Part shown: piece after piece, positions 1 to 36,606 of the stretch
Position numbering within the stretch: position 1 is the stretch's first letter
Layout of the letters: each line of letters opens with the position of its first letter
DNA from: an uncultured Sneathiellales bacterium
GTDB taxonomy: Bacteria; Pseudomonadota; Alphaproteobacteria; CAYFNG01
Length of the DNA: 64,000 bases
Direction of reading: 5' to 3'
Assembly (NCBI GenBank): GCA_964344385.1
Contig: CAYFNG010000005.1
Span: 23,583 to 87,582 of the forward strand
Position numbers and translations under genes: made by a program
The notes under the pieces: model-generated
Database searches by the model: none
What the model was told of the DNA's origin: nothing
What the model saw: only the letters and a program-made list of their open reading frames with translations

Positions 1-1
1 G

Positions 2-301: not shown

Positions 302-322
302 GGGCCGGTCGCGAAGCTGATT

Positions 323-2578: not shown

Positions 2579-2664
2579 AATTGACCGGCCGGCCGGTAGA
2601 AACACGATTGTCGTTACCGGCACGGCTTCGATAGACTGAATGTCTGTCGCTACCGGAGCCGAAC

Positions 2665-2955
2665 ATGACCGCGCACGTCGTCACCAAGGAAATGGGTTAC
2701 ACCCACAGGGAATTTCTGCGCCTGCTGCCCAAGGCGTTGGGCAGCGACGACTACACGGTCGATGGCCGCGAAATCCGGTTTACCGACGGGGAACGCCAAC
2801 TGGACATCAGCCTGTCCGAAGAGGGCGAGCGCCGAATTGCCCTGGTACGGATACCGATGACCGAGGTCCAGCTCAGTTTCACCGGTTATGACCAGCCCGG
2901 CATCGAGGCGGCCCTGAAGCTCTTCTGGCGGGCCTATCAGAAGGGCGGCGGTTAA
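2665..2955 (+). CDS. Small hypothetical protein (96 aa)
   Basis: ORF with typical codon bias in an otherwise gene-free gap. No recognisable motifs. Confidence 0.4.
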   Translation: MTAHVVTKEMGYTHREFLRLLPKALGSDDYTVDGREIRFTDGERQLDISLSEEGERRIALVRIPMTEVQLSFTGYDQPGIEAALKLFWRAYQKGGG

Positions 2956-2974
2956 AGCCCACCCCGGCCGAGGA

Positions 2975-3292
2975 TCACACCACCGGCGAACCGTAGCCCC
3001 AGCTATAGGGGACCGCCCCCGAGAGCGCGACCACGTCGCCGTCTTCCAGCTCGAACGACCCGCGCACCGGATCGCCGACCCGGCCGCGGGTGACATCGCG
3101 GCCGTTGACCAGGACCAGGAAGATTTCCGGCTCGGGGATGTTCAAGGTTTCGGCCAGGTGGCTGACCGTGGCGCCGGGATCGAGTTCGATCCGGAAGCGC
3201 TGGCCGCGGGTGTCGGCGAAACGCGAGATGCTGTTGAACAGGCGGACCTCGACGGTGATCTTGACGCCCTGGGAATTGTGACCGACCAACAT
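2975..3292 (-). CDS. MoaD/ThiS-family ubiquitin-like beta-grasp protein
   Basis: VKITVEVRLF...ELEDGDVVALSGAVPYSWGYG pattern typical of ThiS/MoaD sulfur carriers. ATG at 3292 preceded by GAGGG. The C-terminus extends past the Gly pair (WGYGSPVV). Confidence 0.5.
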   Translation of the reverse strand: MLVGHNSQGVKITVEVRLFNSISRFADTRGQRFRIELDPGATVSHLAETLNIPEPEIFLVLVNGRDVTRGRVGDPVRGSFELEDGDVVALSGAVPYSWGYGSPVV

Positions 3293-3405
3293 GACCTTGC
3301 CCTCGGACCGTGCCGGCGCAATCTGGCATCGCGGGATCGCTGAGGTCAAGAAAAACGGCGGGTACCCGGGGCACCCGCCGTCCTTCGTGAGAGAGAGGTC
3401 GAAAG

Positions 3406-9599: not shown

Positions 9600-9684
9600 T
9601 TTCGCCCTTCCGTTTTTGTTGTGCGGCACGGCCGACACAGAGTCTTGGAGTCCAGTTCACCGGTCTCTGCTCTGTCCCGCTCCT

Positions 9685-9748
9685 CTGCCCAGCCACCCAT
9701 TGAGGTACCCTGGTAGGAGATTGGGCGGAGGAGCGGGACGGAACAACA
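9685..9748. repeat. GC-rich palindromic dispersed repeat, copy A (core ...CCACCCATTGAGGTACCCTGGT...)
   Basis: Imperfect hairpin gtcccgctcctcTgccc...gggcGgaggagcgggac around a GGTACC centre. Copies at 34379-34455 (perfect) and 13815-13855 (half) share the core. Lies in the divergent intergenic region between the LMW-PTP gene and cobB. Confidence 0.7.
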
Positions 9749-11347: not shown

Positions 11348-13788
11348 GGTTTCGACTCCTCGTCCTCGGTGCCTTTCCCGGTCGCCCCGAACGCCTTGCG
11401 GGCCTCGGCCAGCGCCTTCAGGCGCTGCTCCACCAGGTGGAAGACGGTGCCTTCCGGGAAGGCACCGTCGGCGTCGCGCACGCCCGCCGGCACCCCGGTC
11501 AGCAGTTCGATCCCTTCGGCAATCGTCGCCACCGGGAAGACCTGGAAGCGGCCCTCGGCACAGGCCTCGACCACGTCGCGGCGCAGCATCAGGTGGGTGA
11601 CATTGGCGGCCGGGATCATCACGCCCTGCTCGCCGGTCAGGCCCTTGCGCCGGCAGACATCGAAGAAGCCCTCGATCTTTTCGTTGGCGCCGCCGATCGC
11701 CTGCACTTCGCCCAGTTGGTTGACCGAGCCGGTCACCGCCAACGACTGGCGGATCGGCAGGCCGGAAAGGGCCGACAGTAGGGCATAGAGTTCAGTCGAC
11801 GAGGCGCTGTCGCCGTCGACCCCGCCATAGCTCTGTTCGAAGACCAGGCTTGCCCCCAGGGACAGAGGATGGTCGGTGGCGAAGGTGGCCCCCAGATAAC
11901 CGGCCAGGATCAGCACGCCCTTGGAATGCAAGGGCCCGCCCAGTTCCACCTTGCGTTCGATGTCGATCACCTCGCCGCCGCCCATGCGGACCCGTGCGGT
12001 GATCCGGCTGGGCCGGCCGAAGCTGAAATTGCCGAGGCTGAGGACCGAGAGCCCATTGACCTGGCCGACCTCGGCACCGTCGGTCGAGATCATCATGATA
12101 TCGCGCTCGATCATCTCGTGGCTGCGCTCGCGCAATCGGTCGGCGCGGTGGATTTGGGCATCAATCGCCTGCTCGATATCGGCGGCGCTGACCACCTTGC
12201 GGGTGGCCTCGCCGGCCCAGTAATCGGCCTCGCGCATGACGTCGGCCACGCTGCCGATGCGCGAGGTCAGCCGGGCATTGTCGCCGGCCAGCCGGGCGCT
12301 GTGCTCGATCACCCGGGCCACCGCGTCCCGGTCCAGGGGTTTCAGCCCCTCACGCCGGGCGACGGTGGCGACCAGCCTGGCATATTGCTGGGTGACGCCA
12401 TTGTGCCGGTCCATTTCGTCGTCGAAATCGGCCGCCACCTTGAATAGCTCGGAAAAATCCGGCTCGTACTGGCAGAGCAGGTAATAGAGCCGACGATCGC
12501 CGATCAGTACCACTTTCAGATCCAGCGGGATTGCCGCCGGGTCCAGCGACACGGTGCTGACCAGGCTCATGGCCTGGCCCAGGGATTCGATCCGCACCTC
12601 CTTGCCCCGCAAGGCGGATTTCAGCGCCTCCCAGCCATTGGGCTGCATCAGGAGTCGCCGGGCGTCGAGCAGCAGGTAGCCGCCATTGGCGCGATGCAGG
12701 GCGCCCGGCTTGATCAGCCGGAAATCGGTGACCAGGGCGCCCATCTCAGAGAGATGCTCGATCCGGCCGACCAGATTGGCGTGGCTGGGATGATCCTCGA
12801 ACACCACCGGCGCGCCCTTGGCCTCGCCGTTGTCGATCACCAAATTGACCTCGTAGCGGCCCAGGGACGGTTGGCTGCCACCGGCCCGCGCGCCCGGCAT
12901 GCCGCCGCCGGCCAGCACCGCCTGAGCGCCCTCCGCCTTCTGGCCGAGGAAGCTGTCGACATTTTCGCCGACGTCCTTGCGCACCGCTGCCAGGTAGTCG
13001 CCGATCGCCGCGTGGTCGCGGTAACGCTCGCGGACCGCGTCGATCAAATGGCCAACGGCGTAGGCCGAGACTTCGCGGTTGAGGTCCCGCACCCGGTCGC
13101 CATGGTCCTTGGCCCAACTCGGGATCTGCTGGACGATGCCCTGCAGCTGTTTTTGCAGGTCCTCGATATCCGCCTCGATACGGTGGCGCTCCGTTTCCGA
13201 CAGGGTTTCGAACTCTTCCGGCTTCAGGACCTCGCCATCCTTGACCGGCGCCATGCCGAACCCCATTGGAGTGCGGATCAGGGCAATCCCCTTGTCCTTG
13301 GCCCGGTTCTGAAGGTCATCGAAGGCGGTTTCCTGGCGCTGTTTGAACTCCTCTTCGATCACCTGGCGGCGGTTGCGGTAGTCGTCGCTTTCGAAGGCCG
13401 CCGGGATCGCCGATTTCAGATCGGCAACCAGTTGCGCCATGTCCTGGCGAAACTGCCGTCCCAGCCCCGCCGGCAATCGGACCGCGACCGGTTTGTGCGA
13501 CATCTCGAAGTTGAAGAGGTAGCACCAATCGTCCGGCACCGGGGCCTGGGCCGCGGTTTCCTCGAGATAGCGTTTCAGGGTGGTGTGCTTCCCCGCCCCG
13601 GGCGGGCCGAGCGCGAACAGATTGTACCCTTCGCGCTTGATGCCGATGCCAAAACGGATGGCCGCCAGGGCCCGGTCCTGACCGATGATTTCATCCAAAT
13701 CGGCAAGATCGTCGGTGGTGGTGAAGTCGAGGCTCGCCGGATCGCAACGCTGGTACAGGGACTCTACCGGTAACGGGTCGGGCGCCAT
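11344..13788 (-). CDS. Lon-like ATP-dependent protease (COG1067/LonB-BrxL-type: AAA+ ATPase plus Lon S16 proteolytic domain)
   Basis: Walker A GPPGAGKHT. C-terminal S16 domain ...GVDGDSASSTELYALLSALSGLPIRQSLAVTGSVNQLGEVQAIGGANEKIEGFF with the Ser-Lys dyad region. Strong RBS AGGAGGG ahead of ATG 13788. Confidence 0.85.
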   Translation of the reverse strand: MAPDPLPVESLYQRCDPASLDFTTTDDLADLDEIIGQDRALAAIRFGIGIKREGYNLFALGPPGAGKHTTLKRYLEETAAQAPVPDDWCYLFNFEMSHKPVAVRLPAGLGRQFRQDMAQLVADLKSAIPAAFESDDYRNRRQVIEEEFKQRQETAFDDLQNRAKDKGIALIRTPMGFGMAPVKDGEVLKPEEFETLSETERHRIEADIEDLQKQLQGIVQQIPSWAKDHGDRVRDLNREVSAYAVGHLIDAVRERYRDHAAIGDYLAAVRKDVGENVDSFLGQKAEGAQAVLAGGGMPGARAGGSQPSLGRYEVNLVIDNGEAKGAPVVFEDHPSHANLVGRIEHLSEMGALVTDFRLIKPGALHRANGGYLLLDARRLLMQPNGWEALKSALRGKEVRIESLGQAMSLVSTVSLDPAAIPLDLKVVLIGDRRLYYLLCQYEPDFSELFKVAADFDDEMDRHNGVTQQYARLVATVARREGLKPLDRDAVARVIEHSARLAGDNARLTSRIGSVADVMREADYWAGEATRKVVSAADIEQAIDAQIHRADRLRERSHEMIERDIMMISTDGAEVGQVNGLSVLSLGNFSFGRPSRITARVRMGGGEVIDIERKVELGGPLHSKGVLILAGYLGATFATDHPLSLGASLVFEQSYGGVDGDSASSTELYALLSALSGLPIRQSLAVTGSVNQLGEVQAIGGANEKIEGFFDVCRRKGLTGEQGVMIPAANVTHLMLRRDVVEACAEGRFQVFPVATIAEGIELLTGVPAGVRDADGAFPEGTVFHLVEQRLKALAEARKAFGATGKGTEDEESKP

Positions 13789-13814
13789 CTCATAACCCTC
13801 CTAGTGGATGAAAT

Positions 13815-13855
13815 CTAACATAAGGTACCCTGTCATTGGGTGGTTGGGCGGCAAG
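13815..13855. repeat. Half copy (C) of the GGTACC-centred palindromic repeat family
   Basis: aaGGTACCCTGtcattGGGTGGTTGGGcggcaAGCGG matches the right arm of the copy at 34379-34455. Confidence 0.55.
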
Positions 13856-13899
13856 CGGACTGGAACAGCAATCGCCAAACCGAAACCATCACCTTCCAA

Positions 13900-14322
13900 T
13901 CAGTCTTCGTAACTCTCCTCGATCGCCTGCATGTCGGCATCCGAAAGGCCATAGTGGTGGCCGATTTCATGGATCAGCACGTGGCGCACCACATGCATCA
14001 GATCCACATCATGTTCGCACCAATAATCCAGGATCGGTCGCCGGTAGAGGAAGATCATGTCAATCGCCTGCGGCACGTCCAGGACCGATTTCTGATCCAA
14101 GCTGACCCCCTTATAGAGGCCCAGCAGGTCAAACGGGCTTTCCAGCTCCAAGTCAGCCGCGACGTCCGCATCCGGAAAGTCCTCGACCCGGACGACCAAG
14201 CCGGAAATCGGCCGCCGGAGCTTTTCCGGCAGGCTTGCCAAGGCGGTTCGCGCCATTGTCTCGATATCCCCGAGACTGGGCGCGCGTGCGGCGACTTCTG
14301 GTGGCGGAACGCGTGGCTTCAT
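13900..14322 (-). CDS. Zincin-like metallopeptidase-fold protein (DUF1025/Zincin_1 family)
   Basis: HEIGHHYG zinc-binding motif close to the C-terminus. Small acidic protein. Confidence 0.75.
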   Translation of the reverse strand: MKPRVPPPEVAARAPSLGDIETMARTALASLPEKLRRPISGLVVRVEDFPDADVAADLELESPFDLLGLYKGVSLDQKSVLDVPQAIDMIFLYRRPILDYWCEHDVDLMHVVRHVLIHEIGHHYGLSDADMQAIEESYED

Positions 14323-14618
14323 GCCGAATAAGATAGTACCGCAAGCCGGGAAGTACCATGCACGTCCGGCCTTAAACAGCGAAAAATCCCGCCGATCGTT
14401 TAACTATGAAAAACTTTCGGATAATCCCGGCAAGCGGGTTCAAAGCTTACCCTTTTTTAATCTCGTTACCCGACACTCGCAGGCGGTGAACAACCACTAT
14501 CGTGCCAAGGTCAATGGCCCACTTGCCTGGCGCGCTTGGTGCAGATGTGACAGGTGGCCCAGGAGGCCAGAACAACAACCAATTCCGGCGCGACGACATC
14601 ATCCCCCGAGAGAGTCAG

Positions 14619-15449
14619 ATGACAGCCACCGACCCTAACGCGAACACCCTAACGTCCTTCGAAATGAGCGAGGTCGGGAGCCCGGAAACCGCGCAACAGC
14701 CGGACCAATCGGCCGAATGGACAACCGTCCTTCATGCCGCCCGCCGGACCCATGAAGACGCTTCGGCCACGTCGAGCAAGGCCGACATGATCATGATGAA
14801 CGTCCGCATGGTCACGGCCATGATGACCCAGACCTGTGACAGCTGTGTCGACGTGGTCGGCAAGGCAAAGGTCTCGGAAGATGCGGCGCAAAGCGCGCTG
14901 GACCGTACCGCGGAATGCCAGGAGCGCATCCAGGTCCTGTCGACGATCGGCGACCAGATCGCCAGCATCGCCAACATCATCAAGGGAATCGCCGGGCAGA
15001 CCAACCTGCTGGCCCTGAACGCCACGATCGAGGCGGCGCGGGCCGGCGAGGCCGGCAAGGGATTTTCGGTCGTCGCCCACGAAGTCAAGAACCTGGCAAC
15101 CCAGACCGCCAAGGCCACCGAGGACATCACCGCCCAGATCAACGACATCAAACGGGCCACCGGTTCGGCCGTCGAATCGATCGAGAGCGCCCATACGGGC
15201 GTCACCGAGGTTCGCACGATGGTCGGTGGGCTGGCCGGCGCGGTCGGCGACCAGCGCGACACGGTCAACACGATCAACACCTACATCTCGGAAGCCGCGG
15301 ACGGCGTCGAGGAGATCGCCAAGAGCCTGAAGGGGATCGCTGAAAGCGCCGCCGAGACCGACCAAACCGCGGAAAATGCCGTAACCCGGTTGAACGGCCC
15401 CGACGAGCAAGCGGAGGCATGCGACAACGATAGCCAGAGTGCGGCGTAG
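14619..15449 (+). CDS. Soluble methyl-accepting chemotaxis protein (signalling domain only)
   Basis: Highly conserved MCP hairpin tip [30 protein letters not shown]. No TM or periplasmic sensor domain. Start trimmed to ATG 14619. Confidence 0.85.
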
Positions 15450-15517
15450 GGGGGGCGGGGAGCCACTTTATCCGCGCCTCGTACGGGGCGTATGTGAAAC
15501 ACGAAGGAGACTGATAG

Positions 15518-15931
15518 ATGCCGTTAATCGAATGGACCGATGGGATGAGTGTGGGAGTGGCGGCTTTCGACGACGATCACAAGAAACTCGTTGCCATGCT
15601 GAACGAGCTGTTTGATTCCATGCAATCCGGCGCCGGCAAGGACAAGCTGGGTGAGATTCTCGACGGTCTGATTGCCTACACCGTGACGCATTTCGACCGC
15701 GAAGAGAAGATGTTCGCGGAACATGGCTTTCCGGGTGCGGAAGCCCATATCAAGCAGCACGAGGACCTGAAAGCCCAGGCCGTGGCAGCCCAGGAGAAGT
15801 TCAAGAGCGGTGCCGCCGCAACCGTCAGCATGGAAGTCCTGAACTTCCTGAAGAACTGGCTGGTAACCCATATCCAGGGGTCGGACATGGCCTATTCAGC
15901 GTTCTTCAAGCAAAAAGGGCTCGCCGCCTGA
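15518..15931 (+). CDS. Bacteriohemerythrin (hemerythrin-like O2-binding protein)
   Basis: H...H...E...H...H...D di-iron ligand pattern ([23 protein letters not shown]). Immediately downstream of the soluble MCP. Confidence 0.85.
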
Positions 15932-16106
15932 GGGGCTGAGCCGGGCTTTCGGGCCCAGAACGTTTCGGGTGTATCGGGCCTGGTCGGCGATCCGTCACCG
16001 ACTGTGCTCGATCCGCCCGATATTTTTATTTATCTCCCACCATTGTCGACCTCGGCCCCGGGTTACAGTTCAAGGCAAAAGACCCTCCGAACCCCCGAGG
16101 ACCCGA

Positions 16107-16394
16107 ATGACCGAACCACTGAGCCCCGCGGAGCGTGACGCGGCGCTGGCCCGCCTGCCCGGCTGGGCGTTGGACGATACCGGCACCGCGATCGGCAAGC
16201 GCTTCCAATTTACCGACTTCAGCACCGCCTTTGCTTTCATGACCCGGGTCGCCCTGGCCGCCGAGCGGCTCGACCATCATCCCGACTGGTGCAATTCCTA
16301 CCGCCGGGTCGACATCACCCTGACCACTCATGAGATCGGCGGCCTGAGCCGGCGCGACATCGCCCTGGCCGAGGCGATCGAGGCCTTGGTTTAG
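16107..16394 (+). CDS. phhB: Pterin-4a-carbinolamine dehydratase (PCD/DCoH)
   Basis: 95 aa. ...[20 protein letters not shown]...HHPDW... matches the PCD fold and catalytic His motif. Confidence 0.85.
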
Positions 16395-16468
16395 GCGCCG
16401 GGCAACGGATTCATGATTGCACAACGAAATTTCGCAACAATATATAGGTGTGAACCAGGAAAGCCGAT

Positions 16469-16804
16469 ATGTTCTCATGGGGACGCAGACGAGCGGCCAA
16501 GCGCTATGCCAATGAGCTGGGGCCGCAGTTGATCAATGACTACGGCGCGTCGGAGACCTACACCGCCGGCCAGATCCGTTCGGCCGTAGCCCGCCTGGAG
16601 CTGCCGGAAAAATACCTCTGCTTCGGTTTTGCCGGGTTCATGGACGAGGCCGGCTACAATACCCAGCTCCGCGACCTGAGAAAGGCGCCGCCCTACGCCA
16701 TGGCCCGCAAGCTGTTCCAGCGCTATGTCCCGGTCCGTGGTTTTTCCGAACCCGCGCCGGCCCGCGTCAGCCCCTATATCCACACCGGCAGCAGCATTCG
16801 CTAA
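16469..16804 (+). CDS. Hypothetical protein (111 aa)
   Basis: ORF with normal codon bias. No family recognised. Confidence 0.4.
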   Translation: MFSWGRRRAAKRYANELGPQLINDYGASETYTAGQIRSAVARLELPEKYLCFGFAGFMDEAGYNTQLRDLRKAPPYAMARKLFQRYVPVRGFSEPAPARVSPYIHTGSSIR

Positions 16805-16805
16805 C

Positions 16806-16840
16806 CACCGGCGGAACCTGCATTTACACGTGGCGTGACG
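16806..16840 (+). repeat. Direct repeat DR-L (accacCGGCGGAACCTGCATTTaCaCgTGGCGtGAC) flanking a low-GC insertion. Contains an ECF-sigma-like GGAAC-N16-CGT motif
   Basis: 24 of 28 core positions are identical to the copy at 20286-20320. It sits directly after the stop of the 16469..16804 gene. Confidence 0.6.
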
Positions 16841-16970
16841 TGGGGCACGGGGCAATCTGCACAACACCGCCGGCGGGTCGCCCAGCAGCATCATGTATCG
16901 CGAGCCCAAGCCCACCCAAGCGTGGAAGTTTGCCTCGGAGTTGGGTTACAAGTTCGGTGTTCTTGGTCTG

Positions 16971-17273
16971 CTATGCAGTCGCAACGCTGTAGTCATCGAC
17001 AATTCGTGCGGTGCCGACCGTGGCCTCAAGGCGCAATGGCAGTATTTCGCGATAGGCGGGCGAATTGTACCACGCTTCCGCCTCATCCCGGGATTTGAAC
17101 CGGAGTACGATCGTTCGCGGAAAATCGGAACCGCCTTCGAGAATTGTGCTGTCCTCATCAAACACGAGCACTTCCCCGCCGCTTGCCTCGATAAGCGCAA
17201 AAGCCTCCCCGACATATTTCGCCATCTTCTGCGCATCGGTCACGACGTTGTTGAAAATCACATAGGTTGCCAC
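16971..17273 (-). CDS. DUF1330 domain protein
   Basis: GTG start after GAGGAAGAACAA. ...YVIFNNVVTDAQKMAKYVGEAFALIEASGGEVLVF... matches DUF1330 (dimeric alpha+beta barrel). Confidence 0.6.
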   Translation of the reverse strand: MATYVIFNNVVTDAQKMAKYVGEAFALIEASGGEVLVFDEDSTILEGGSDFPRTIVLRFKSRDEAEAWYNSPAYREILPLRLEATVGTARIVDDYSVATA

Positions 17274-17631
17274 TTGTTCTTCCTCAAAAAAGTATGGAAA
17301 TGGGGCGTTCGATCCCGGGTTGAAGGGGCGGCAATGCAATTGTGCCACATCGCCCAGAGTCGGCGGATGCCTCGCTGCCACGCAAGGGTCTCAATACTGC
17401 GACCGACCCCGAGCCGGCGCAACCAATTGTGCCCTGAAATCCGCAGAGTACGGGGTCCTCGGTCTCGACGTAAATGGCTCTCTCCCTCTCCAAGTAAAAA
17501 GCGTCCATTAAACCGAGGGGACTCCAATCTACTAGCGCGCCTGCTCCAAGAGAAAAATGGCCGGAGTTCACCCGGCCATTTTTGCGCTGCCAGTGAGATG
17601 GCAATTCCATTTTGGAAACCGGCGGCCCGTT

Positions 17632-17892
17632 TTAGGCACCGATCAACATGACAATCGTATCTGGTCGTACGCCATCATGCTTCATCGCCGCGGCACCAAC
17701 GTCGCTTTGCATGAGTGCGTCGAATGCGTCCATGTCATCAACGACCATGGTCAGGCCCACCTTGTTGGCGTCGGAGGGATGGACATAGGTCTCGATGTTC
17801 TCAGCGATGCCGGCAAAGACTTCCTGCCGCTTGGGGGATGCGAGCCAATGATCGACGTTGTCAACTTCATGCATGACGATAATATTTGGCAT
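17632..17892 (-). CDS. Small hypothetical acidic protein (86 aa)
   Basis: Strong RBS AGGAGA 7 nt ahead of ATG 17892. The opposite-strand ORF 17557..17943 is judged spurious. Confidence 0.55.
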   Translation of the reverse strand: MPNIIVMHEVDNVDHWLASPKRQEVFAGIAENIETYVHPSDANKVGLTMVVDDMDAFDALMQSDVGAAAMKHDGVRPDTIVMLIGA

Positions 17893-18035
17893 TGTTTATC
17901 TCCTGGTTCGTTAGAGGGATACGCATCGCTCAAGTGCGATTAGCGTGAGCCAACAGGCGGACGGATATTTGAGCCACCTGTGATGAGGTGTGAGAGGTCG
18001 CGGTGATGGGGCTTTGCTGCGGCTGGAAATAGATC

Positions 18036-19049
18036 TTAGATGTTCAGCACAGCCGCCGAGAGACGCCCAATGTGGGTATCGGCATACCGCCCGCCATCGT
18101 AAACCGTTGTTAGACGCGCTATGCGTCCATCGCTATCCAGTACGACCCCTGTGACGCCAGTGTTGACTGGAGCGGTTGCGGTGGCCGTCCATTCTATGGC
18201 ACCGCCATCGTCGGATCCGACAACATGCCGAAATACGACCCCCTTGCCATAGGGCAGCATCGGCAGGGCGCGCTTTAGATGCGCTTGAACCGCGTTGCGA
18301 CCGATCAACTGCGACCGCAAAGCCATATCCTCGAATACGACGTCGTATGCGAAAACATCACTCGCCTCAGCTTTCGGGTCGTTCTCGAATACCGCCAGTA
18401 GCTTCTGCGAGACATCCGCCATCTTGGCGGGGGTTGCGCTCGCAACTTCGGTTTGGCGGAAGTCGGTAAGTTGAGCCTTTTCAAGCCCATAGTCATTGGG
18501 CCAGTCGCGGCTGTCCCAATGGTCTATCCAGCGTATGATTTTGCCGTCCTTGAAATCGATAACCGCCAAGAGACGCAACTCGCCGCCAAACAATTCGGGT
18601 GTGTCTGTGAAGGCGACAAAGGCACCGCCCTGCATGTCGCCAACGATGCGTGTGGCGTACGACCTGGCAGTATCGGGCCAGTTCGGCATATATTGCGTGA
18701 AGACACCTTTGAGCGCTTCATAGCCGGCTATGTCCCATCCCAAAGTCGCGTCAATATAGGTGACGAGATCAGGCGAGAAGAACGACATGGTGGCGTCAAT
18801 ATCGCGGTTTGTCTTGGCTTCGAAAAAATCCGTCATGAAGGCTGCTAGATCAGGCGACGCGCCGGTTGTGTCGATCTGCGTTTCACGGCCAGCATCGGTG
18901 TGCGCACGGGCCGGCAGGTTGACTGTCATTGCTGCCATTGATCCCATAGCGGCAAGCTGAAGAAACCTCCTTCGCTGCGTGTTGATAGGCCCGGGGAAAC
19001 TGTCCAAATTCATTAGCTCTTCGTTAGAGCCAATATTTTTAAATCCCAT
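18036..19049 (-). CDS. Tat-secreted protein with tandem NTF2-like (SnoaL-like) domains
   Basis: Twin-arginine motif QRRRFLQLAAMG followed by an AxA cleavage site. Two NTF2/SnoaL-like repeats. Start uncertain (19049 or 19013). Confidence 0.6.
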   Translation of the reverse strand: MGFKNIGSNEELMNLDSFPGPINTQRRRFLQLAAMGSMAAMTVNLPARAHTDAGRETQIDTTGASPDLAAFMTDFFEAKTNRDIDATMSFFSPDLVTYIDATLGWDIAGYEALKGVFTQYMPNWPDTARSYATRIVGDMQGGAFVAFTDTPELFGGELRLLAVIDFKDGKIIRWIDHWDSRDWPNDYGLEKAQLTDFRQTEVASATPAKMADVSQKLLAVFENDPKAEASDVFAYDVVFEDMALRSQLIGRNAVQAHLKRALPMLPYGKGVVFRHVVGSDDGGAIEWTATATAPVNTGVTGVVLDSDGRIARLTTVYDGGRYADTHIGRLSAAVLNI

Positions 19050-19165
19050 GGTAGCGAGTCCTTCCGTTGCGTCCATTGTGGGCCTGGTGCCCAAACTGTG
19101 CTTGCGAATTGTGGACAGCTTGGGCGAAGCTGCACCATCACTCAAACGAATGGTTTTCAGGGGTC

Positions 19166-20116
19166 ATGAAGGAAATTCAGCTGCATCGGGTCGACCTCAA
19201 CCTGCTGGTCGTATTTGAGGCCCTGATGCTTGAAGGCAGTGTCGTCGGGGCAGCCTCAAAGCTGAACAAGACGCCTTCGGCCGTCAGTCACGCCCTTGCC
19301 CGCCTGCGTGACCAGGTGGGGGATCCGCTTATGGTCAAAGTCGGCGGGCGGATGCAGGCCAGCCCGTTTGCACTTCAACTTATTGATGATGTCCGGCCGA
19401 TTTTGCGCAGCATCAAACGTGTGCTTGAGCTGCCGGAACCTTTTGATCCTGCCGCCAGCCAGCGCACGTTTCGAATAGCGAGTCCGATTGCGGGGCAGGT
19501 ATTGTCCGATGTCGTGAACCAAGTCGGCCGAGAAGCGCCGAACGCATCCATCGAATGGTTATCGACGCCGCGAGAAGTCTATGCAGCCGTCTCCGAGGGG
19601 ATGATTGACCTGGCGCATTTGGGTGGCGAGCGCAGCCTCCCCGATGGCCTCGAAGAAGCTGAGATGCCTGCGTTGAACTTTGTGAGTTTTGTGCGCGAAG
19701 GTCACCCAGCAATAGCGGACTGGGGACCTGAGGCCTGGCAACATTTCAACCATGTTCAGGTCGCGATTGGCAATGAGGTTCGAAGCCCCGTCGATAGCGC
19801 TGGGACAGGCGCAACTGGCGAGCGGAAGATTGGTGCCTTGATTTCCGAGTTCGCTGCTGTCGGACCACTCCTCGCCAGCAGCAACATGATTGCCACGCTT
19901 CCCACCATGATCATGGCAGGGGATATTCAGAAATACGGGCTCAGACCTATGCCATCCCTGTTACCAATCCCACCGTTCCGTGCACGCTTTTTTTGGTCGT
20001 CGCGAACCGCCAACGACCCGGCTCTGGTCTGGATTCGGGACCTCGTTCTGAACGCCTACCGCACGGCGCACGAAGAGGCCGAATCAATTGTACAGAGCGC
20101 GCTGAACGCTTCTTAA
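19166..20116 (+). CDS. LysR-family transcriptional regulator
   Basis: N-terminal wHTH LNLLVVFEALMLEGSVVGAASKLNKTPSAVSHALARLR, then an LTTR substrate-binding domain. Divergent from the NTF2-like gene. Confidence 0.85.
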   Translation: MKEIQLHRVDLNLLVVFEALMLEGSVVGAASKLNKTPSAVSHALARLRDQVGDPLMVKVGGRMQASPFALQLIDDVRPILRSIKRVLELPEPFDPAASQRTFRIASPIAGQVLSDVVNQVGREAPNASIEWLSTPREVYAAVSEGMIDLAHLGGERSLPDGLEEAEMPALNFVSFVREGHPAIADWGPEAWQHFNHVQVAIGNEVRSPVDSAGTGATGERKIGALISEFAAVGPLLASSNMIATLPTMIMAGDIQKYGLRPMPSLLPIPPFRARFFWSSRTANDPALVWIRDLVLNAYRTAHEEAESIVQSALNAS

Positions 20117-20285
20117 AAGCGGCTTTTACAAGTCGAGACTCCTCGAAACATAGAGGGCGCCGGCTTTCGCATCAGCCGTGCGATCCAGCAGAGAGGGTTT
20201 GTCTTATGATTTCTCTATCGGTCTGGAAGGACATCGAAACGGCTCGTAACCGAGGAAACAGATAACAGCTGAAAACTGGCTGACC

Positions 20286-20320
20286 ACGGGCGGAACCTGC
20301 ATTTGCCCATGGCGCGACCC
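20286..20320 (+). repeat. Direct repeat DR-R (accacGGGCGGAACCTGCATTTgCcCaTGGCGcGAC). Probable native promoter region of the ComM/YifB gene
   Basis: Same 35-bp motif as 16806-16840. Located 60 bp upstream of the 20380 start. Confidence 0.6.
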
Positions 20321-20379: not shown

Positions 20380-21909
20380 TTGGGTGACATGGTCGCGCGG
20401 GTCAGTACGGTGGCGTTCCAAGGGATCGAAGCCAGGGACGTCGACGTCCAGGTGCAGGTGGCGTCGGGCATCCCGTCCTTCGCCATTGTCGGCCTGCCCG
20501 ACAAGGCGGTGTCGGAAGCCAAGGAGCGGGTCCGGGCCGCCCTGGGCGCGGTCGGCATGGCCTTGCCGCCGAAGCGGATCACCGTCAACCTGGCACCGGC
20601 CGACCTGCCGAAGGAGGGCAGCCACTACGACCTGCCGATCGCGGTCGGCCTGATGGTCGCGCTGGGCGTGCTGCCCGGTGATGCCATCGCCGGCTACACG
20701 GTGCTGGGGGAGCTGGCGCTGGACGGCGCGATCAGCACCGTGGCCGGAACCCTGCCGGCGGCTCTGCAGGCCTCGGCCCAGGACCGCGGCATCATCTGCC
20801 CGGCGGCGTGCGGCGGCGAGGCGGCCTGGGCCGGCGAGATCGAGGTGCTGGCACCGGCCGGCCTGTTGGCCCTAGTCAACCACTTCAAAGGATCCCAGGT
20901 GCTGAGCCCGCCGGAACCGCGCCTGGCCGATGACAACCCGAGTGTCCTGGACCTGAAGGACATCAAGGGCCAGGAGACCGCCAAGCGGGCCCTGGAAGTG
21001 GCGGCGGCCGGCGGACATAACCTGTTGATGGTGGGACCGCCCGGCGCCGGCAAGTCGATGCTGGCGGCCCGGCTGGCCGGCCTGCTGCCGCCGCTGGACG
21101 CGGCCGAGGCGTTGGAGGTCAGCATGATCGCCTCGGTCGCCGGCCTGTTGGGCGATGGCCGGTTGAGCCGCACCCGCCCGTTTCGCGACCCGCACCATTC
21201 CGCCTCGATGCCGGCGATGATCGGCGGCGGCACCAGGGCCCGGCCGGGCGAGGTCAGCCTGGCCCATCTTGGGGTTCTGTTTCTGGACGAACTGCCGGAA
21301 TTCCCGCGCCCGGTCCTGGATTCCCTGCGCCAGCCGCTGGAGACCGGCGAGGCGGTGGTGGCACGGGCCAACGCCCATATCCGCTATCCGGCCCGGGTGC
21401 AATTGGTGGCGGCAATGAACCCCTGCCGCTGCGGCTATCTGGGCGACCCGGAGCAGGCCTGCACGCGGGCGCCGCGCTGCGCCGGGGAATACCAGTCGAA
21501 GATTTCCGGCCCCTTGTTCGACCGCATCGACCTGCATGTCGAGGTCCCGGCGGTCGCCGCCACTGATTTGAGCCTGCCGCCGCCGGCCGAGGGGACGGCC
21601 GAGATCGCCGCCCGGGTCGGCCTGGCCCGCGACCTCCAGCGGACGCGCTACGCCGAACGGGGCAATGGCGCGGTCATCCGGACCAATGCCGAGGTTGACG
21701 GCGAACTGCTGATGGACGTGGCCGCCCCGGATGATGCCGGCAAGCGGCTATTGGCCGAAGCCACCGAAGCCATGCGCCTGACCGCCCGCGGCTACCACCG
21801 GGTCCTCAGGGTCGCCCGCACCCTGGCCGACCTGGAGGGCACGGACGCCGTCCGCCGCCTCCATATCGCCGAGGCCTTGAGCTACCGGCGGATCCTGTTG
21901 GGACGGTGA
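20380..21909 (+). CDS. comM: YifB/ComM-family Mg-chelatase-like AAA+ ATPase
   Basis: N-terminal Lon-SSD-like domain. Walker A GPPGAGKSM and Walker B VLFLDELPEF. C-terminal ChlI-like domain. Confidence 0.9.
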   Translation: MGDMVARVSTVAFQGIEARDVDVQVQVASGIPSFAIVGLPDKAVSEAKERVRAALGAVGMALPPKRITVNLAPADLPKEGSHYDLPIAVGLMVALGVLPGDAIAGYTVLGELALDGAISTVAGTLPAALQASAQDRGIICPAACGGEAAWAGEIEVLAPAGLLALVNHFKGSQVLSPPEPRLADDNPSVLDLKDIKGQETAKRALEVAAAGGHNLLMVGPPGAGKSMLAARLAGLLPPLDAAEALEVSMIASVAGLLGDGRLSRTRPFRDPHHSASMPAMIGGGTRARPGEVSLAHLGVLFLDELPEFPRPVLDSLRQPLETGEAVVARANAHIRYPARVQLVAAMNPCRCGYLGDPEQACTRAPRCAGEYQSKISGPLFDRIDLHVEVPAVAATDLSLPPPAEGTAEIAARVGLARDLQRTRYAERGNGAVIRTNAEVDGELLMDVAAPDDAGKRLLAEATEAMRLTARGYHRVLRVARTLADLEGTDAVRRLHIAEALSYRRILLGR

Positions 21910-31437: not shown

Positions 31438-31842
31438 CTATTTCTCGAGGTCGCGAAACTTGCGGGCCAGGTTGAACTCGGCCGAGGTGACGTGGCGTTC
31501 GATGTCGCGCAGGCGCGCTTCCAGGTCCCGGAAGGTGTGGCGTAGCGACGAGAAGGTGCGGTCGGGCGCGGTCGAGACCGAGCGCCAGAAGACCTCTTCC
31601 TCGCCCGAGGCGTAAACCCGGTCGGGGCGCCGGGGGAGGAAGATCACCGCGGCGATATAGGCCAGCACCGCCGGCACGGTGAAGAAGATGCCGCCGGCGA
31701 TCGCCGCCAGGCGCATGGTCCAGGGCGCGACCCCGAAATAGTCGGCAACCCCGGCACAGACGCCGAACAGGATCCCGTTTTCGGTATTGCGGAACAGCCG
31801 GTGCGGGTTGGGCGAACGGAAGCTGTCATATTCCGTCGTCAT
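31438..31842 (-). CDS. pspC: Phage shock protein C
   Basis: PspC domain (RLFRNTENGILFGVCAGVADYFGVAPWTMRLAAI) plus a TM helix. The ATGA start/stop overlap with pspB. Confidence 0.85.
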   Translation of the reverse strand: MTTEYDSFRSPNPHRLFRNTENGILFGVCAGVADYFGVAPWTMRLAAIAGGIFFTVPAVLAYIAAVIFLPRRPDRVYASGEEEVFWRSVSTAPDRTFSSLRHTFRDLEARLRDIERHVTSAEFNLARKFRDLEK

Positions 31843-32069
31843 TGTTGGTTCCTCCATTCGGGGGTTTCGGCGTCCAGGATGGTCTCCAGGGTGGCGATCC
31901 GGTTTTCCATCTTGCGGACGGATTCCCAGATTTCGACCAGCATGCGTTCGTCGTCGGTGGTCAGGCCCTTGGCCGCCTTCCAGCGCGCCAGATAGTGGAA
32001 CACGATCCACAAGGGCGCCACGAACGCCATGAAGATTACCATCGGCACGAAGAAAAACAGCGATCCCAT
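31839..32069 (-). CDS. pspB: Phage shock protein B
   Basis: 76 aa. N-terminal TM, then …LVEIWESVRKMENRIATLETILD, the typical PspB region. Confidence 0.8.
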   Translation of the reverse strand: MGSLFFFVPMVIFMAFVAPLWIVFHYLARWKAAKGLTTDDERMLVEIWESVRKMENRIATLETILDAETPEWRNQQ

Positions 32070-32115
32070 GATCTTACCTTTTCCGTCTACGCGTTCAGGC
32101 CGGCGGGGTTGTTTC

Positions 32116-32140
32116 CAACGGTCATTGGGAATGACCGTTG
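32116..32140 (-). terminator. Intra-operon hairpin between pspA and pspB (11-bp perfect stem CAACGGTCATT/AATGACCGTTG, GGG loop)
   Basis: Perfect inverted repeat in the 188-bp pspA-pspB spacer. No clear U-tract, so a partial terminator or attenuator. Confidence 0.4.
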
Positions 32141-32257
32141 ATCAGTCCCTCAAACGCCGGGCGCATTTCTCCGAAACGCTTGGCTTCCGGCACACAAGCG
32201 CCGACGCACGTTTGTGCTTGCCACCGGGCCATGAGCCACGCTCACTGCCCGATGGAA

Positions 32258-32953
32258 CTACGACTTGGCCGGCTTCTTGGCCGATTTGGCCTTGACTGCC
32301 TTGGCCTTCAGGGCCTCCAACTCGGCCTCGACCTTGGACTCGACCTCCAGGTCACCGAATTCCTCGGCCAGGCTCTTCTTGCGTTCACCGCCCAGATCAT
32401 AAGCCTCGACCTGCCCGTTCACCTCGTCCAGCTTCCTTTCCATATAGTCAAAGCGGTCGATCACGTCATCGACCTTGCGATTGTGCAGTTCGACCCGCAC
32501 TTTCAGCCGGTTGCCGGCGGTCTTGGTCCGCATGGTCATCGCCTTCTGGCGCGACTTGGCATGATCGAGCTTTTCCTGCAGCTTGGCGATATCGTCGCTG
32601 GCCTTGGCCAGGTCTTCGTCGATCCGGGCCATGTCCTCGTCCAACTGGTCGCGGGTTTCGACCAGCTTGGCCTTGGCGACCAGGGCCGCCTTGGCCAGGT
32701 CTTCGCGGTCCTTCTCCAGCGCCAGTTCCGCCTTGCGCTGCCATTCGTCGATCTGGGCGGTCAGCCGCTCCCGCTGGCGTCCCAGTTCCTTGGTCTCGGC
32801 GATGGTGCGGGCGGCGCCCGAGCGGGCCTCAACCAGCGTGTCCTCCATCTCCTGGATCATCAGCCGAACGATCTTTTCCGGATCCTCGGCCTTGTCGAGA
32901 ATGGCGTTGACGTTGGAATTGATGATGTCGGTGAGGCGCGAGAAAATGCTCAT
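32258..32953 (-). CDS. pspA: Phage shock protein A (PspA/IM30 family)
   Basis: MSIFSRLTDIINSNVNAILDKAEDPEKIVRLMIQEMEDTLVEARS…, a canonical PspA coiled-coil protein. Confidence 0.95.
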   Translation of the reverse strand: MSIFSRLTDIINSNVNAILDKAEDPEKIVRLMIQEMEDTLVEARSGAARTIAETKELGRQRERLTAQIDEWQRKAELALEKDREDLAKAALVAKAKLVETRDQLDEDMARIDEDLAKASDDIAKLQEKLDHAKSRQKAMTMRTKTAGNRLKVRVELHNRKVDDVIDRFDYMERKLDEVNGQVEAYDLGGERKKSLAEEFGDLEVESKVEAELEALKAKAVKAKSAKKPAKS

Positions 32954-33177
32954 CTGTCCTGTTCCGTGGTCTTGGCGGCACCGCCCATCGGCGCCGTCAT
33001 TTGGGGTTGGTAACTGAGGTCCGGTGCCACATCCTGGACCCGGCGCAGGTCAGCCAGCCAGACAAAGGCCAGCAGGATCAGGGGCACCGCGATCACGCCG
33101 ACCAGGACTTGGGTGATGGCCCGTGGGTCGATCATCGATCCGGCCCTGCCTGCACCACTGGTCGCGCTCTGCATCTG
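32950..33177 (-). CDS. Small single-TM protein, translationally coupled (ATGA) upstream of pspA
   Basis: ORF ending 4 nt into pspA. One TM helix (ITQVLVGVIAVPLILLAFVWLADL). Lies downstream of the sigma54 promoter. Start uncertain (33177 or 33135). Confidence 0.35.
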   Translation of the reverse strand, partial: QMQSATSGAGRAGSMIDPRAITQVLVGVIAVPLILLAFVWLADLRRVQDVAPDLSYQPQMTAPMGGAAKTTEQDR

Positions 33178-33247
33178 CACCCTCCTGTCGTCGGGACGGT
33201 CCGTCTCTGCGGTTCCGTCGCTTGCCCGATACATAGCAGGGAGCGTG

Positions 33248-33263
33248 CCAATTCGGGCCGGCC
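33248..33263 (-). promoter_or_regulatory. Sigma54 promoter of the psp operon (minus strand TGGCACG-ctcc-cTGCt)
   Basis: The reverse complement of 33248-33263 reads TTGGCACGCTCCCTGCT: perfect -24 and a GC at -12 with correct spacing. Sits in the divergent pspF-pspA intergenic region. Confidence 0.65.
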
Positions 33264-33378
33264 AGATAAGGCATTGAAATTTATGGGTAAAATTCCGGAC
33301 CGATTTTTGACTTCTTGATATAGTGGTGAAAATCGCTAAATAAATGGTGAGAAAAACCTATTAATCGATTTTTTTACC

Positions 33379-34353
33379 ATGGACCTGCCGCAGATCGTCG
33401 GACAATCACCGCCCTGGCTGGAACTGCTGGAGCAGATCAGCCGGGTCGCGCCCCTGGACAAGCCGGTGCTGGTGATCGGCGAACGCGGCACCGGCAAGGA
33501 ACTGATCGCGGCCCGGCTGCATTTCCTGTCGCAGCGTTGGAACGCGCCGTTCGTCAAGTTGAACTGCGCCGCGCTGCCCGAGACATTGCTGGAGACCGAG
33601 CTGTTCGGCCATGAAGCAGGCGCCTTCACCGGCGCCGGCAAGCAGCGCCTGGGCCGTTTCGAACTGGCCGATGGCGGCACATTGTTCCTGGACGAGATCG
33701 CCAACGCCTCGCTGGCGGTCCAGGAGAAGATCCTCAGGGTGATCGAGTATGGCGAGTTCGAGCGGGTGGGCTCCAGCGCCACGCAAAGCGTCGATGTCCG
33801 GGTGATCGGCGCCACCCATGTCGACCTGCCGACGGCGGCGCGGGCCGGCCACTTTCGCGAAGACCTGCTGGATCGGCTGGCCTTCGATGTCGCCACCGTG
33901 CCGCCGTTGAAGGCGCGGGGCGAGGATATCCATTTGCTGGCCCGGCATTTCGGGGCCCGTATGGCGCGCGAGTTGGAACTCGAGAGCTTCGCCGGGTTCG
34001 CGCCTGAGGTCGAAGCCGAACTGGCCGCTTACCGCTGGCCGGGCAATGTCCGCGAGCTTCGCAATGTGGTCGAGCGGGCCGTCTATCGCCAAGCCGACCC
34101 CGAGGCGCCGATCGCGGCCGTCGTCTTCGACCCCTTCGCCTCGCCCTACCGACCGGGGCGGCCGGACCCGGAAGACGCGAAAGAGGCGCCAGAGGAGCCC
34201 TACGACTTCCAGGCCCGGGTCCGCGACCTGGAAACCGATTGGCTGGGCGCCGCCCTGGCCCGCAACCACCACCACCAACGCCGCACCGCCGAATTCCTGG
34301 GCCTGACCTATCACCAGCTGCGCGGCTACATGCGAAAATACGATTTACCTTAA
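33379..34353 (+). CDS. pspF: Psp operon transcriptional activator (sigma54 enhancer-binding protein without a regulatory domain)
   Basis: AAA+ sigma54-interaction domain starts at residue ~5 (VLVIGERGTGKELIAARLH, GAFTGA present, ESFAGFAPE). C-terminal HTH. Divergent from pspA. Confidence 0.9.
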   Translation: MDLPQIVGQSPPWLELLEQISRVAPLDKPVLVIGERGTGKELIAARLHFLSQRWNAPFVKLNCAALPETLLETELFGHEAGAFTGAGKQRLGRFELADGGTLFLDEIANASLAVQEKILRVIEYGEFERVGSSATQSVDVRVIGATHVDLPTAARAGHFREDLLDRLAFDVATVPPLKARGEDIHLLARHFGARMARELELESFAGFAPEVEAELAAYRWPGNVRELRNVVERAVYRQADPEAPIAAVVFDPFASPYRPGRPDPEDAKEAPEEPYDFQARVRDLETDWLGAALARNHHHQRRTAEFLGLTYHQLRGYMRKYDLP

Positions 34354-34378
34354 GGGTTTGTCTTACAAAGTGGCCGTT

Positions 34379-34455
34379 CCATCCCGCTCCCCCTCCCAAC
34401 CACCCATTGATGGTACCCTGGTGGGTGGTTGGGAGGGGGAGCGGGATGGAACAGG
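34379..34455. repeat. GC-rich palindromic dispersed repeat, copy B (27-bp perfect arms, 17-nt loop ATTGATGGTACCCTGGT)
   Basis: ccatcccgctccccctcccaaccaccc / gggtggttgggagggggagcgggatgg are exact reverse complements. Lies 3' of pspF and could double as a terminator. Confidence 0.8.
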
Positions 34456-36087: not shown

Positions 36088-36606
36088 CTATTCCGGTTTG
36101 ACAAAAAACCGGTGACTGACCCGAAACTCCCGGATCAATTTTCGTTTGGTGGTGCGAAAGACCACAAACAACAGTGCGTACCCGCTGCACAACCCGACCC
36201 AGACTTGGAATTCCCAAATCCGAATAGGAGACACTAAAATCAGGGCGAATATCAGGGGTGCCGAAACGATAATCCCCAATAGCGTCCATTCAATTCGCCT
36301 CGCTATAGTCTCTTGGCTATCGTTCTCCAGAACCAGGCCAGCGTGGTTTGCACCCCACGGGTAGTAGACTTTCGTCCGACCTGGATCCTGTTGAATGTTG
36401 CGCTCGGCAAATCTTGAAACGCGACGCCGCAAGGCAAGGAAGCATATGACACAACAGGCCCTAAACCCGACACGCAACGGCTCGGACAGTCTGCACTCCC
36501 CCGCGGTCACATCTTGATGGGCCGAACGCGCACTTTGGCCACCTTGCCGGATCGGCGGTCGTTTCCGCCCGAATGGCGTCATTTTATTCCGCCTCCCTCT
36601 AGACAA
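36088..36606 (-). CDS. Hypothetical membrane protein (C-terminal 2 TM), start uncertain
   Basis: ORF in a lower-GC patch. The C-terminal half is hydrophobic. No internal Met. Weak support. Confidence 0.25.
   Translation of the reverse strand: MSRGRRNKMTPFGRKRPPIRQGGQSARSAHQDVTAGECRLSEPLRVGFRACCVICFLALRRRVSRFAERNIQQDPGRTKVYYPWGANHAGLVLENDSQETIARRIEWTLLGIIVSAPLIFALILVSPIRIWEFQVWVGLCSGYALLFVVFRTTKRKLIREFRVSHRFFVKPE

Follow-up and report, generated by a model that had tools for sequence, protein, structure and literature searches.

The 64-kb stretch of DNA analysed here (the window) carries a four-gene cassette upstream of comM, which differs in composition from its surroundings and lies between two copies of an imperfect direct repeat. 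The islet is genuine, though small and of an ordinary kind, and its horizontal acquisition is well supported. We suggest, with a probability of about 0.5, that the islet was integrated at the repeats in an att-like manner by a recombinase that acted in trans or was lost with a larger, since decayed island. A horizontally acquired islet next to comM had already been proposed in the preliminary description of this DNA; the composition, the occurrence of the same cassette in other contexts and the absence of recombinase domains in the 64 kb all agree with that proposal. The features of the region are as follows.

16469-16804, plus strand: DUF6559 gene, the left host flank, 111 aa (Pfam PF20196, E 4.8e-10; GC3 0.79)
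16800-16839, plus strand: left repeat copy, putative attL-like junction, sequence GCTAACCACCGGCGGAACCTGCATTTACACGTGGCGTGAC
16840-16913, no strand: spacer of 74 nt, from the left repeat to the start of homology to contig L090 at 16914 (blastn)
16971-17273, minus strand: cargo gene 1, DUF1330 protein (Pfam PF07045, E 2e-22; GC3 0.63)
17632-17892, minus strand: cargo gene 2, acidic protein of 86 aa (14 acidic and 5 basic residues)
18036-19049, minus strand: cargo gene 3, tandem SnoaL/NTF2-like protein, 337 aa (Pfam SnoaL_2 twice; Tat signal RRRFLQL; GC3 0.63)
19166-20116, plus strand: cargo gene 4, LysR-family regulator, 316 aa, divergent from the SnoaL gene (Pfam HTH_1 and LysR_substrate; GC3 0.63)
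17552-20115, no strand: conserved three-gene module, comprising the 86-aa gene with its terminator hairpin, the SnoaL gene and the LysR gene
20117-20278, no strand: AT-rich non-coding right end of the islet, with weak likeness to contig L085 until about 20200 and the last ~80 nt unique
20279-20318, plus strand: right repeat copy, putative attR-like junction, sequence GCTGACCACGGGCGGAACCTGCATTTGCCCATGGCGCGAC
20389-21909, plus strand: comM/yifB, the right host flank, Mg-chelatase-like AAA+ ATPase, 506 aa (Pfam ChlI, Mg_chelatase and Mg_chelatase_C; GC3 0.89)

Composition of the islet

The DNA between the repeat copies (16840-20278, 3,439 bp) has a GC content of 56.2%, compared with 63.9% in the window and 67.6% in the right flank, so the lower GC content reported earlier was borne out. 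The flanks had been put at 65-68%, which is correct for the right side, but the left side (13500-16799) has only 60.8%. The four islet genes showed GC3 values of 0.63-0.66 against 0.805 ± 0.045 (sd) in the host genes, whose minimum is 0.69, and they are thereby placed 3.5-4 sd under the host mean. The genes of the left flank, with GC3 values of 0.73-0.81, are inside the host range. The GC3 step is sharp at the repeats, from 0.79 in the DUF6559 gene to the islet values and then to 0.89 in comM. In the tetranucleotide profile, the islet was the most deviant 3.4-kb segment of the window (deviation 0.326; window mean 0.181, sd 0.036). These data indicate that the islet is compositionally foreign and that the step falls at the repeats.

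Cargo genes

The gene set had been described as unrelated to its surroundings, comprising a DUF1330 protein, a small acidic protein, a Tat-secreted tandem NTF2-like protein and a LysR regulator. Pfam found the DUF1330 domain, two SnoaL_2 stretches and the helix-turn-helix and substrate domains of LysR, and the Tat motif RRRFLQL is present, in agreement with that description. In the gene prediction for L081, the DUF1330 protein is 100 aa long; its longest ORF reaches 17381, and it shares 90% amino-acid identity with the DUF1330 protein of L090. The 86-aa protein gave only a faint EthD match against Pfam/NCBIfam (E 0.057). Its AF2 single-sequence model, which is of low confidence (pLDDT 65), has the order beta-alpha-beta-beta-alpha-beta, and the top matches of this model in a Foldseek search of the PDB were ABM-family proteins, e.g., 4hl9 (E 2.8e-5). 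The model suggests that the protein probably adopts an ABM/EthD-like ferredoxin fold (dimeric alpha+beta barrel). Orthologues that are 78-85% identical to it occur in L085, L086, L090 and L092. The tandem SnoaL protein matched TIGR02096 (ketosteroid-isomerase-related) under the cutoff of that model and has homologues of 73-85% identity in other metagenome contigs. The LysR gene is divergent from an operon that encodes the SnoaL protein together with the 86-aa protein. Judged only from these fold families, the cargo looks like a self-regulated module that modifies or detoxifies small molecules. No terminator was predicted between the LysR gene and comM.

The same cassette in other contigs

The cassette was found at other loci in contigs L085, L086, L090, L091 and L092-95, with 79-87% nucleotide identity and different neighbours. 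The conserved module is 82.9% identical at the nucleotide level to L085 (3197-5744), 84.0% to L086 (1546-4107) and 79.2% to L090, and the divergent LysR/SnoaL pairing is seen in L085, L086, L087, L090, L091 and L092-95. L090 carries all four cargo genes, and a tRNA-Gly(CCC) gene has its 3' end about 227 nt away from them. In L085, the cassette lies between racemase and DUF2165 genes and has a GC3 of 0.61-0.67, compared with 0.77-0.83 in the flanking genes.

The best non-self homologue of ComM in protein searches showed 77% amino-acid identity, and a scan of genome contigs returned 80 ComM loci at 63-75% identity. As the relatives of ComM do not exceed 77%, the cassette proteins, at 75-90% identity, are closer than vertical descent predicts. 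Taken together, the foreign composition, the cassette at other loci and the distance of the ComM relatives argue for horizontal acquisition. None of the 80 ComM loci has PCD, DUF6559, IclR or cassette genes nearby, and the collections searched contained neither a close relative of the organism nor an empty site. The DUF6559 protein had no homologue besides itself among 5.8 billion proteins. With regard to a vehicle, a blastn search of plasmids with the islet returned two trivial matches, tblastn with DUF1330 for a plasmid or phage carrier gave only matches under 45% identity, and a scan of viral contigs gave nothing.

The direct repeat at the junctions

A repeat search returned an imperfect direct repeat of 40 nt, identical at 34 positions (85%), at 16800-16839 and 20279-20318 with a spacing of 3479. 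It contains an exact core of 16 nt, GGCGGAACCTGCATTT, at 16810-16825 and 20289-20304; with up to 3 mismatches allowed, this core matches the whole window twice, both times in the repeat copies. The preliminary description was right about the pair itself and 2-3 nt off in its position, the 35-nt motif lying at 16804-16839 and 20283-20318. The likeness reaches 4 nt to the left of that motif, into the stop codon of the DUF6559 gene (GCTAA versus GCTGA), and the TAA of this codon (16802-16804) falls inside the left copy. The right copy ends 70 nt upstream of the comM ATG. The left copy is located between two convergent genes; it therefore has no gene that it could serve as a promoter. On the left side, homology to the other cassette copies ends about 65 nt inward of the repeat, and on the right side about 80 nt.

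The repeat is far above chance. In 60 Markov shuffles of the window, the best 40-mer match was 27-31/40 compared with 34/40 in the real sequence, and the local alignment of the junction regions scored 50, whereas none of 300 shuffles scored above 30. Searching beyond the pair gave no third copy in the 74 kb examined, which include 10 kb outside the window. The repeat was also absent from the 80 comM loci of relatives, including the region upstream of comM, from the sides of the cassette in L085 and L086, and from the cassette-bearing loci as a whole. In the JGI metagenomes, a 22-nt pattern of the repeat gave a single chance match, in the coding sequence of a proline-rich ORF. By inspection, the copies, 85% identical, have no conserved dyad of the kind typical of core-type recombinase binding sites. 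The same genome carries other dispersed intergenic repeats, at 9675-9745 and 34367-34455.

Several readings of the repeat as a regulatory or structural signal were considered. An ECF-sigma-like motif had been placed in the right repeat, but GGAAC-N16-CGT is found in the left copy only, the right one reading GGAAC-N16-CGC. The motif has 3 matches in the window against 2.6 expected, which is chance frequency. An ECF-sigma promoter pair was rejected because the motif is neither shared by the copies nor enriched and because the left copy faces the 3' end of a convergent gene. By eye, the repeat fits neither the sigma-54 nor the dif consensus. No sigma-70-like site or terminator was predicted at the repeats, no hairpin is common to both copies, and Rfam gave nothing at gathering score and nothing at E <= 1.

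A possible route of integration

No integrase or transposase had been seen in the segment before, and our search confirmed this, as no such domain occurs among the window's ORFs of 100 aa or more. Integrase, excisionase and relaxase genes are absent from the islet and from these ORFs, and no pseudogene remnant was recognised. Neither a circular junction nor a second insertion with the same repeat was found.

We infer that the repeats were made by the integration event and that a site-specific recombinase was responsible. The four-gene cassette (16840-20278) would have entered the short spacer between the DUF6559 gene and comM. Before this event, the spacer probably held one repeat copy, in the order DUF6559 stop, repeat, about 70 nt and comM ATG. 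Recombination in the identical core of 16-26 bp would have duplicated the repeat, as attB x attP gives attL + attR. The recombinase would not have been islet-encoded; it may have acted in trans, or it may have been lost as a larger island decayed, leaving a remnant like a cis-mobilizable element. By analogy, the repeats are best read as putative att-type junction scars of a cis-mobilizable or decayed island.

Cis-mobilizable elements (CIMEs), like decayed genomic islands, were defined for ICESt1/ICESt3 derivatives in streptococci (PMC5704250). Like CIMEs, the islet lacks genes for integrase, excisionase and transfer and adjoins a conserved host gene or its end, and its cargo is bracketed by att-like direct repeats that share an identical core of about 16 bp. 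Unlike CIMEs, it has no ICE, IME or integrase found to be cognate to its repeat, its repeats are putative att sites, and they overlap just the last 5 nt of the upstream gene. It is also much smaller (3.4 kb) than the streptococcal elements, and its host is an uncultured alphaproteobacterium, not a firmicute. With classical tRNA-associated genomic islets and islands it shares an accessory cargo of atypical composition, direct repeats on both sides and a patchy distribution, and the cassette copy in L090 lies near a tRNA gene, as noted above. Unlike such islands, the islet has no integrase and no tRNA gene in the 64-kb window, and its insertion is in a protein-gene spacer upstream of comM. A comparison can also be made with the AbaR/Tn6019-Tn6022 (Tn7-like) islands of Acinetobacter, which are likewise foreign DNA at the comM locus. 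They are inserted within the coding sequence of comM and have terminal inverted repeats, a 5-bp duplication and TnsABC-like transposition proteins. In the present case, comM is uninterrupted and the islet lies 70 nt upstream of it, without terminal inverted repeats or transposition genes.

Alternative explanations

It is possible, though rather unlikely, that the islet was acquired horizontally and that the repeats are unrelated to its insertion, being a low-copy host intergenic repeat or a protein-binding or promoter element. As a variant, the right copy might have been brought in by the acquired DNA itself. The entry route would then be illegitimate or homology-facilitated recombination after transformation or GTA-type transfer, which agrees with the absence of a recombinase. 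Both junctions are available in one other copy only, that of L085, whose low-GC3 cassette has no significant flanking repeat (score 22, matched by 15 of 300 shuffles); it suggests that the module can be acquired without such repeats. The flanking match in L085 was rejected as a replicate, as it is a marginal 14/16 match that overlaps a terminator T-tract. Other repeated intergenic elements exist in the genome, so a low-copy host repeat family is conceivable, and a promoter or operator is plausible at the right copy, 70 nt upstream of comM. On the other hand, a host element of either kind is difficult to reconcile with only two copies in 74 kb and none upstream of comM in 80 relatives, and both copies stand within about 65-80 nt of the ends of the cassette homology. 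Unrelated sequences would hardly be placed in this way: a binomial estimate for a 34/40 match confined to the two junction zones is ~1e-9 (p ~0.27). A regulatory role is further opposed by the position of the left copy between convergent genes, by the ECF-like motif, which is neither kept in both copies nor enriched, and by the lack of a conserved hairpin or an Rfam match.

A transposon-type remnant, in which the repeats would be a target-site duplication made by a lost transposase or Cas1-like integrase, is in our estimate quite improbable. It would account for a foreign segment exactly flanked by direct repeats, and the left repeat had been suggested before to be such a duplication. This suggestion does not fit an imperfect 40-nt repeat when terminal inverted repeats are lacking. 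When the islet ends were aligned in inverted orientation, the best match (score 19, 12/13 nt) lay within the repeat and spacer and not at the outer ends, and the 16840-16913 spacer has no inverted-repeat partner at the other end of the islet. The duplications made by known DDE transposases and casposases measure 2-15 bp, far below 40 nt. The copies differ at 6 of 40 positions, although duplications begin identical, and no transposase or Cas1 domain was found in the window. An att-type junction is the better analogy for the repeats.

The reading in which no transfer took place, and the segment is native DNA of atypical composition with a coincidental repeat or a metagenome mis-assembly, is largely refuted. 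The left flank at 13.5-16.8 kb is likewise somewhat GC-poor, as such a reading would have it, but its GC3 is host-like while the islet genes fall far under the host mean. The presence of the cassette at other loci in other organisms at 79-87% nucleotide identity and a repeat far outside the shuffles also speak against it. In the source project (PRJEB17505), all contigs carry the islet and agree at 99.97-100% identity, at least five samples or assemblies independently yielded the identical sequence, and the 16-26-nt identity of the repeat is shorter than the assembler k-mers. It indicates that the islet is no assembly artefact.

IMEXs encode no recombinase and lie between direct repeats of about 28 bp, and the islet is comparable to them in its missing recombinase gene and in having direct repeats of that order (roughly 30 bp in IMEXs). 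Such a Xer-dependent integrative element, with dif and pseudo-dif sites as the repeats, would explain the missing recombinase, but it is hardly credible here, as the repeat is not dif-like and by inspection lacks the dif layout (two 11-bp arms, a 6-bp spacer and ATAA-N6-TTAT), and the cumulative GC skew drops almost steadily over the window with no clear terminus-type strand switch.

Biological meaning

As it stands, the islet represents mainly routine genome plasticity. It offers a clean small case of horizontal gene acquisition, with sharply defined junctions, in an uncultured Rhodospirillales-like lineage, and its cargo module evidently circulates among several uncultured bacteria. The sequences highlight a conserved and repeatedly transferred module, made up of a predicted Tat-exported SnoaL tandem protein, an ABM-like protein and a LysR regulator. 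A broader proposal, which we regard as doubtful, is that the LysR/SnoaL-tandem/ABM-like cassette, with or without DUF1330, is a small non-autonomous element that is moved among distantly related bacteria by a trans recombinase of the host or of a helper element, with insertion at a core of about 16 bp and junction repeats of about 40 bp as its trace. If this were true, it would define a class of integrase-less 'passenger cassettes' outside integrons, IMEX elements and known CIMEs. If the repeats are functional att sites for a trans-acting recombinase, the islet would provide a minimal model for the spread of integrase-less cassettes.

Composition and gene content of the islet

A horizontal origin of the DNA between the DUF6559 gene and comM is well supported, and we give it a probability of roughly 90%. 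The features of this region and its edges are as follows.

16800-16839, left repeat copy, GCTAACCACCGGCGGAACCTGCATTTACACGTGGCGTGAC
16971-17273, minus strand, DUF1330 protein (Pfam)
17632-17892, minus strand, 86-aa acidic protein (faint EthD match only)
18036-19049, minus strand, tandem SnoaL_2 protein with a Tat signal (Pfam)
19166-20116, plus strand, divergent LysR regulator (Pfam)
20279-20318, right repeat copy, GCTGACCACGGGCGGAACCTGCATTTGCCCATGGCGCGAC
Flanks: DUF6559 protein on the left, comM/yifB on the right (Pfam)

The 3,439-bp segment enclosed by the repeats has a GC content of 56.2%. The preliminary description had noted that this DNA is AT-richer, which holds against the window (63.9%) and the right flank (67.6%), but the left flank (13.5-16.8 kb) reaches merely 60.8% and the bulk contrast is weaker there. 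The foreign composition is settled by GC at codon position 3 (GC3), which is 0.63-0.66 in the four islet genes, compared with a mean of 0.805 in the host genes (sd 0.045, minimum 0.69) and with 0.79 and 0.89 in the DUF6559 gene and comM that abut the repeats. Moreover, in a sliding 3.4-kb tetranucleotide comparison the segments covering the islet were the most deviant of the window (0.326 for the islet vs a mean of 0.181, sd 0.036). The profiling of GC and tetranucleotides that had been proposed as a check thus agreed with a horizontally acquired islet, as did the presence of the cassette in other contigs at 79-87% nucleotide identity.

Pfam also bore out the gene set first read from the sequence, namely DUF1330, a tandem SnoaL/NTF2 protein with a Tat signal and a divergent LysR regulator. 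As had been remarked, none of the window ORFs of at least 100 aa showed a domain of an integrase, a transposase or another mobility protein; the window contains no tRNA gene.

The flanking direct repeat

The two copies are 34/40 identical in direct orientation at a spacing of 3479 bp. They share the exact 16-mer GGCGGAACCTGCATTT, which has no other match in the 64 kb with up to 3 mismatches allowed. The direct repeat of the preliminary description therefore stands, with its positions 2-3 nt off; on the left the similarity continues for 4 nt past the start first reported and overlaps the upstream gene's stop codon. In Markov shuffles of the window (n=60) the top 40-mer match was just 27-31, and the two junction regions aligned locally with a score of 50, compared with at most 30 in shuffles (n=300). 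When all direct pairs of at least 33/40 in the real window were compared, the others were repeats inside a single gene of repetitive sequence (43778-45907), two coding-sequence pairs (1386/50010 and 33465/39252) and a palindromic intergenic element in two copies (~9675-9745 and 34367-34455).

Several explanations of the repeat were rejected. Mis-assembly is excluded because the same structure occurs in five independent assemblies of the ENA metagenome project PRJEB17505 at 99.97-100% identity; the identity stretch of the repeats (16-26 nt) is shorter than the assembler k-mers, and a 441-kb contig of this project contains the window sequence unchanged. By inspection the repeat lacks dif architecture, and an RNA element is unsupported, with no Rfam match and no hairpin common to both copies. 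Terminal inverted repeats are absent, which rejects transposon ends, and together with the imperfect 40-nt duplication this also speaks against a transposase as the source of the target-site duplication suggested earlier. The ECF-sigma motif GGAAC-N16-CGT had been placed in the right copy, which in fact reads CGC; it is found in the left copy only, at chance frequency, facing the 3' end of the convergent DUF1330 gene, so ECF promoters were dismissed. A dispersed repeat was likewise rejected, since the search for further copies, foreseen in the preliminary description, gave none within 10 kb outside the window and a single, chance match in coding sequence in a pattern scan of JGI metagenomes. 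Finally, a conserved comM element is not consistent with the absence of the repeat upstream of comM in 80 relatives and beside the cassette in the metagenome contigs L085 and L086.

An att-type junction is the most economical remaining reading, and we regard integration junctions as plausible, at about even odds. In the ancestral spacer a single 40-mer would have followed the DUF6559 stop, with ~70 nt between it and the comM ATG. Recombination inside the identical core, between this 40-mer and a related site carried by the incoming DNA, would have produced attL and attR. Tyrosine-integrase att sites have identical cores of such a length. Our searches failed to reveal a recombinase, an empty site, a circular form or a further instance, and in L085, the sole other copy with both junctions, a flanking repeat was not significant. 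That the integrase-less cassette was mobilised in trans appears improbable.

The cassette in other contigs

Metagenome contigs carrying the module or the full cassette
L085: LysR, SnoaL, 86-aa; 83% nt identity to 17552-20115; between a racemase and a DUF2165 gene
L086: LysR, SnoaL, 86-aa; 84% nt identity to 17553-20099; adjoins an ECF sigma gene
L090 (JGI Ga0114931_10068100, 1-3310): all four genes including DUF1330 (90% aa); 79% and 87% nt identity; ~227 nt from the 3' part of tRNA-Gly(CCC)

Homologues of the SnoaL tandem protein are 73-85% identical, closer than any found for the far more conserved ComM of the host, whose top non-self match is 77% identical. The module of L085 is a low-GC3 patch too (0.61-0.67 vs 0.77-0.83 in the adjoining genes). 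The end of L090 cuts the tRNA-Gly(CCC) gene, which was assigned by eye from the anticodon loop and T-arm, the fragment being beyond ARAGORN calling. tRNA-Gly is a classic integration site of islands. The L090 contig is too short to display an integrase or the far junction. The spacer between the DUF1330 and 86-aa genes in the window (17285-17558) is ~190 nt longer than that of L090 and contains CAATTGTGCC twice, at ~17341 and ~17424.

Four independently assembled Logan contigs (L092-L095; ERR15087767/72/79/93) carry the three-gene module and all begin ~198-205 nt past the LysR stop, a shared break point of the sort usually seen where a boundary has variable surroundings within a population. 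The other copies cease to match the window at ~16905 on the left and ~20200 on the right, 65-80 nt inside the repeats. Judged from these contexts and end points, the cassette is evidently a recurrent passenger moved by horizontal transfer, and the repeats evidently lie at the edges of foreign DNA.

Close relatives of the host are missing from every collection searched; a protein search found no DUF6559 homologues, and the comM neighbourhood was shared by none of 80 loci from other Alphaproteobacteria.

Other features of the window

The ~75-nt palindromic element at 9675-9745 and 34367-34455 (TCCCGCTCC...CCACCCATTGA(T)GGTACCCTGGT...GGAGCGGGA) is in gene spacers at both places and resembles a dispersed repeat of REP or MITE type in this genome. 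A large near-perfect palindrome of tandem GACACGAATTAAGGG units (53802-53930) directly precedes a GMC oxidoreductase gene (53955-55625) and may be a hairpin element or an array of operators. On the minus strand at 36088-36902, two ORFs (172 and 107 aa) overlap; their GC3 is 0.60-0.63 (host ~0.80), they gave no Pfam match, and they may represent another small islet of foreign DNA. A 709-aa ORF (42573-45907, minus strand) without Pfam match has many internal nucleotide repeats (33-35/40, spacings ~200-800 nt); a C39 peptidase-domain protein lies nearby, with one small ORF between, an arrangement suggestive of a repetitive protein that is secreted or of a bacteriocin-like export locus. In tetranucleotide usage the 42-46 kb region deviates second most strongly in the window. 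At 31438-34353 a PspC/PspA (IM30) pair adjoins a divergent PspF-like sigma-54 activator, apparently an ordinary phage-shock locus; a second sigma-54 activator is encoded at 38959-40185.

Nature of the locus and its cargo

The locus is a small genomic islet, a putative remnant like a cis-mobilizable element (CIME), of an already known kind. No terminator was predicted between LysR and comM, so transcriptional read-through into comM is possible. A single-sequence model of the 86-aa protein has a beta-alpha-beta-beta-alpha-beta topology at low confidence (pLDDT 65), with dimeric alpha+beta barrels like antibiotic-biosynthesis monooxygenases (ABM) as top PDB matches. No specific family assignment of the cargo proteins passed its cutoff. 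Because LysR stands beside three small ligand-binding, enzyme-like folds (the periplasmic SnoaL/NTF2 tandem, the ABM-like barrel and the DUF1330 barrel), the cargo suggests a self-regulated module whose target would be a small compound, perhaps aromatic or resembling a quinone.
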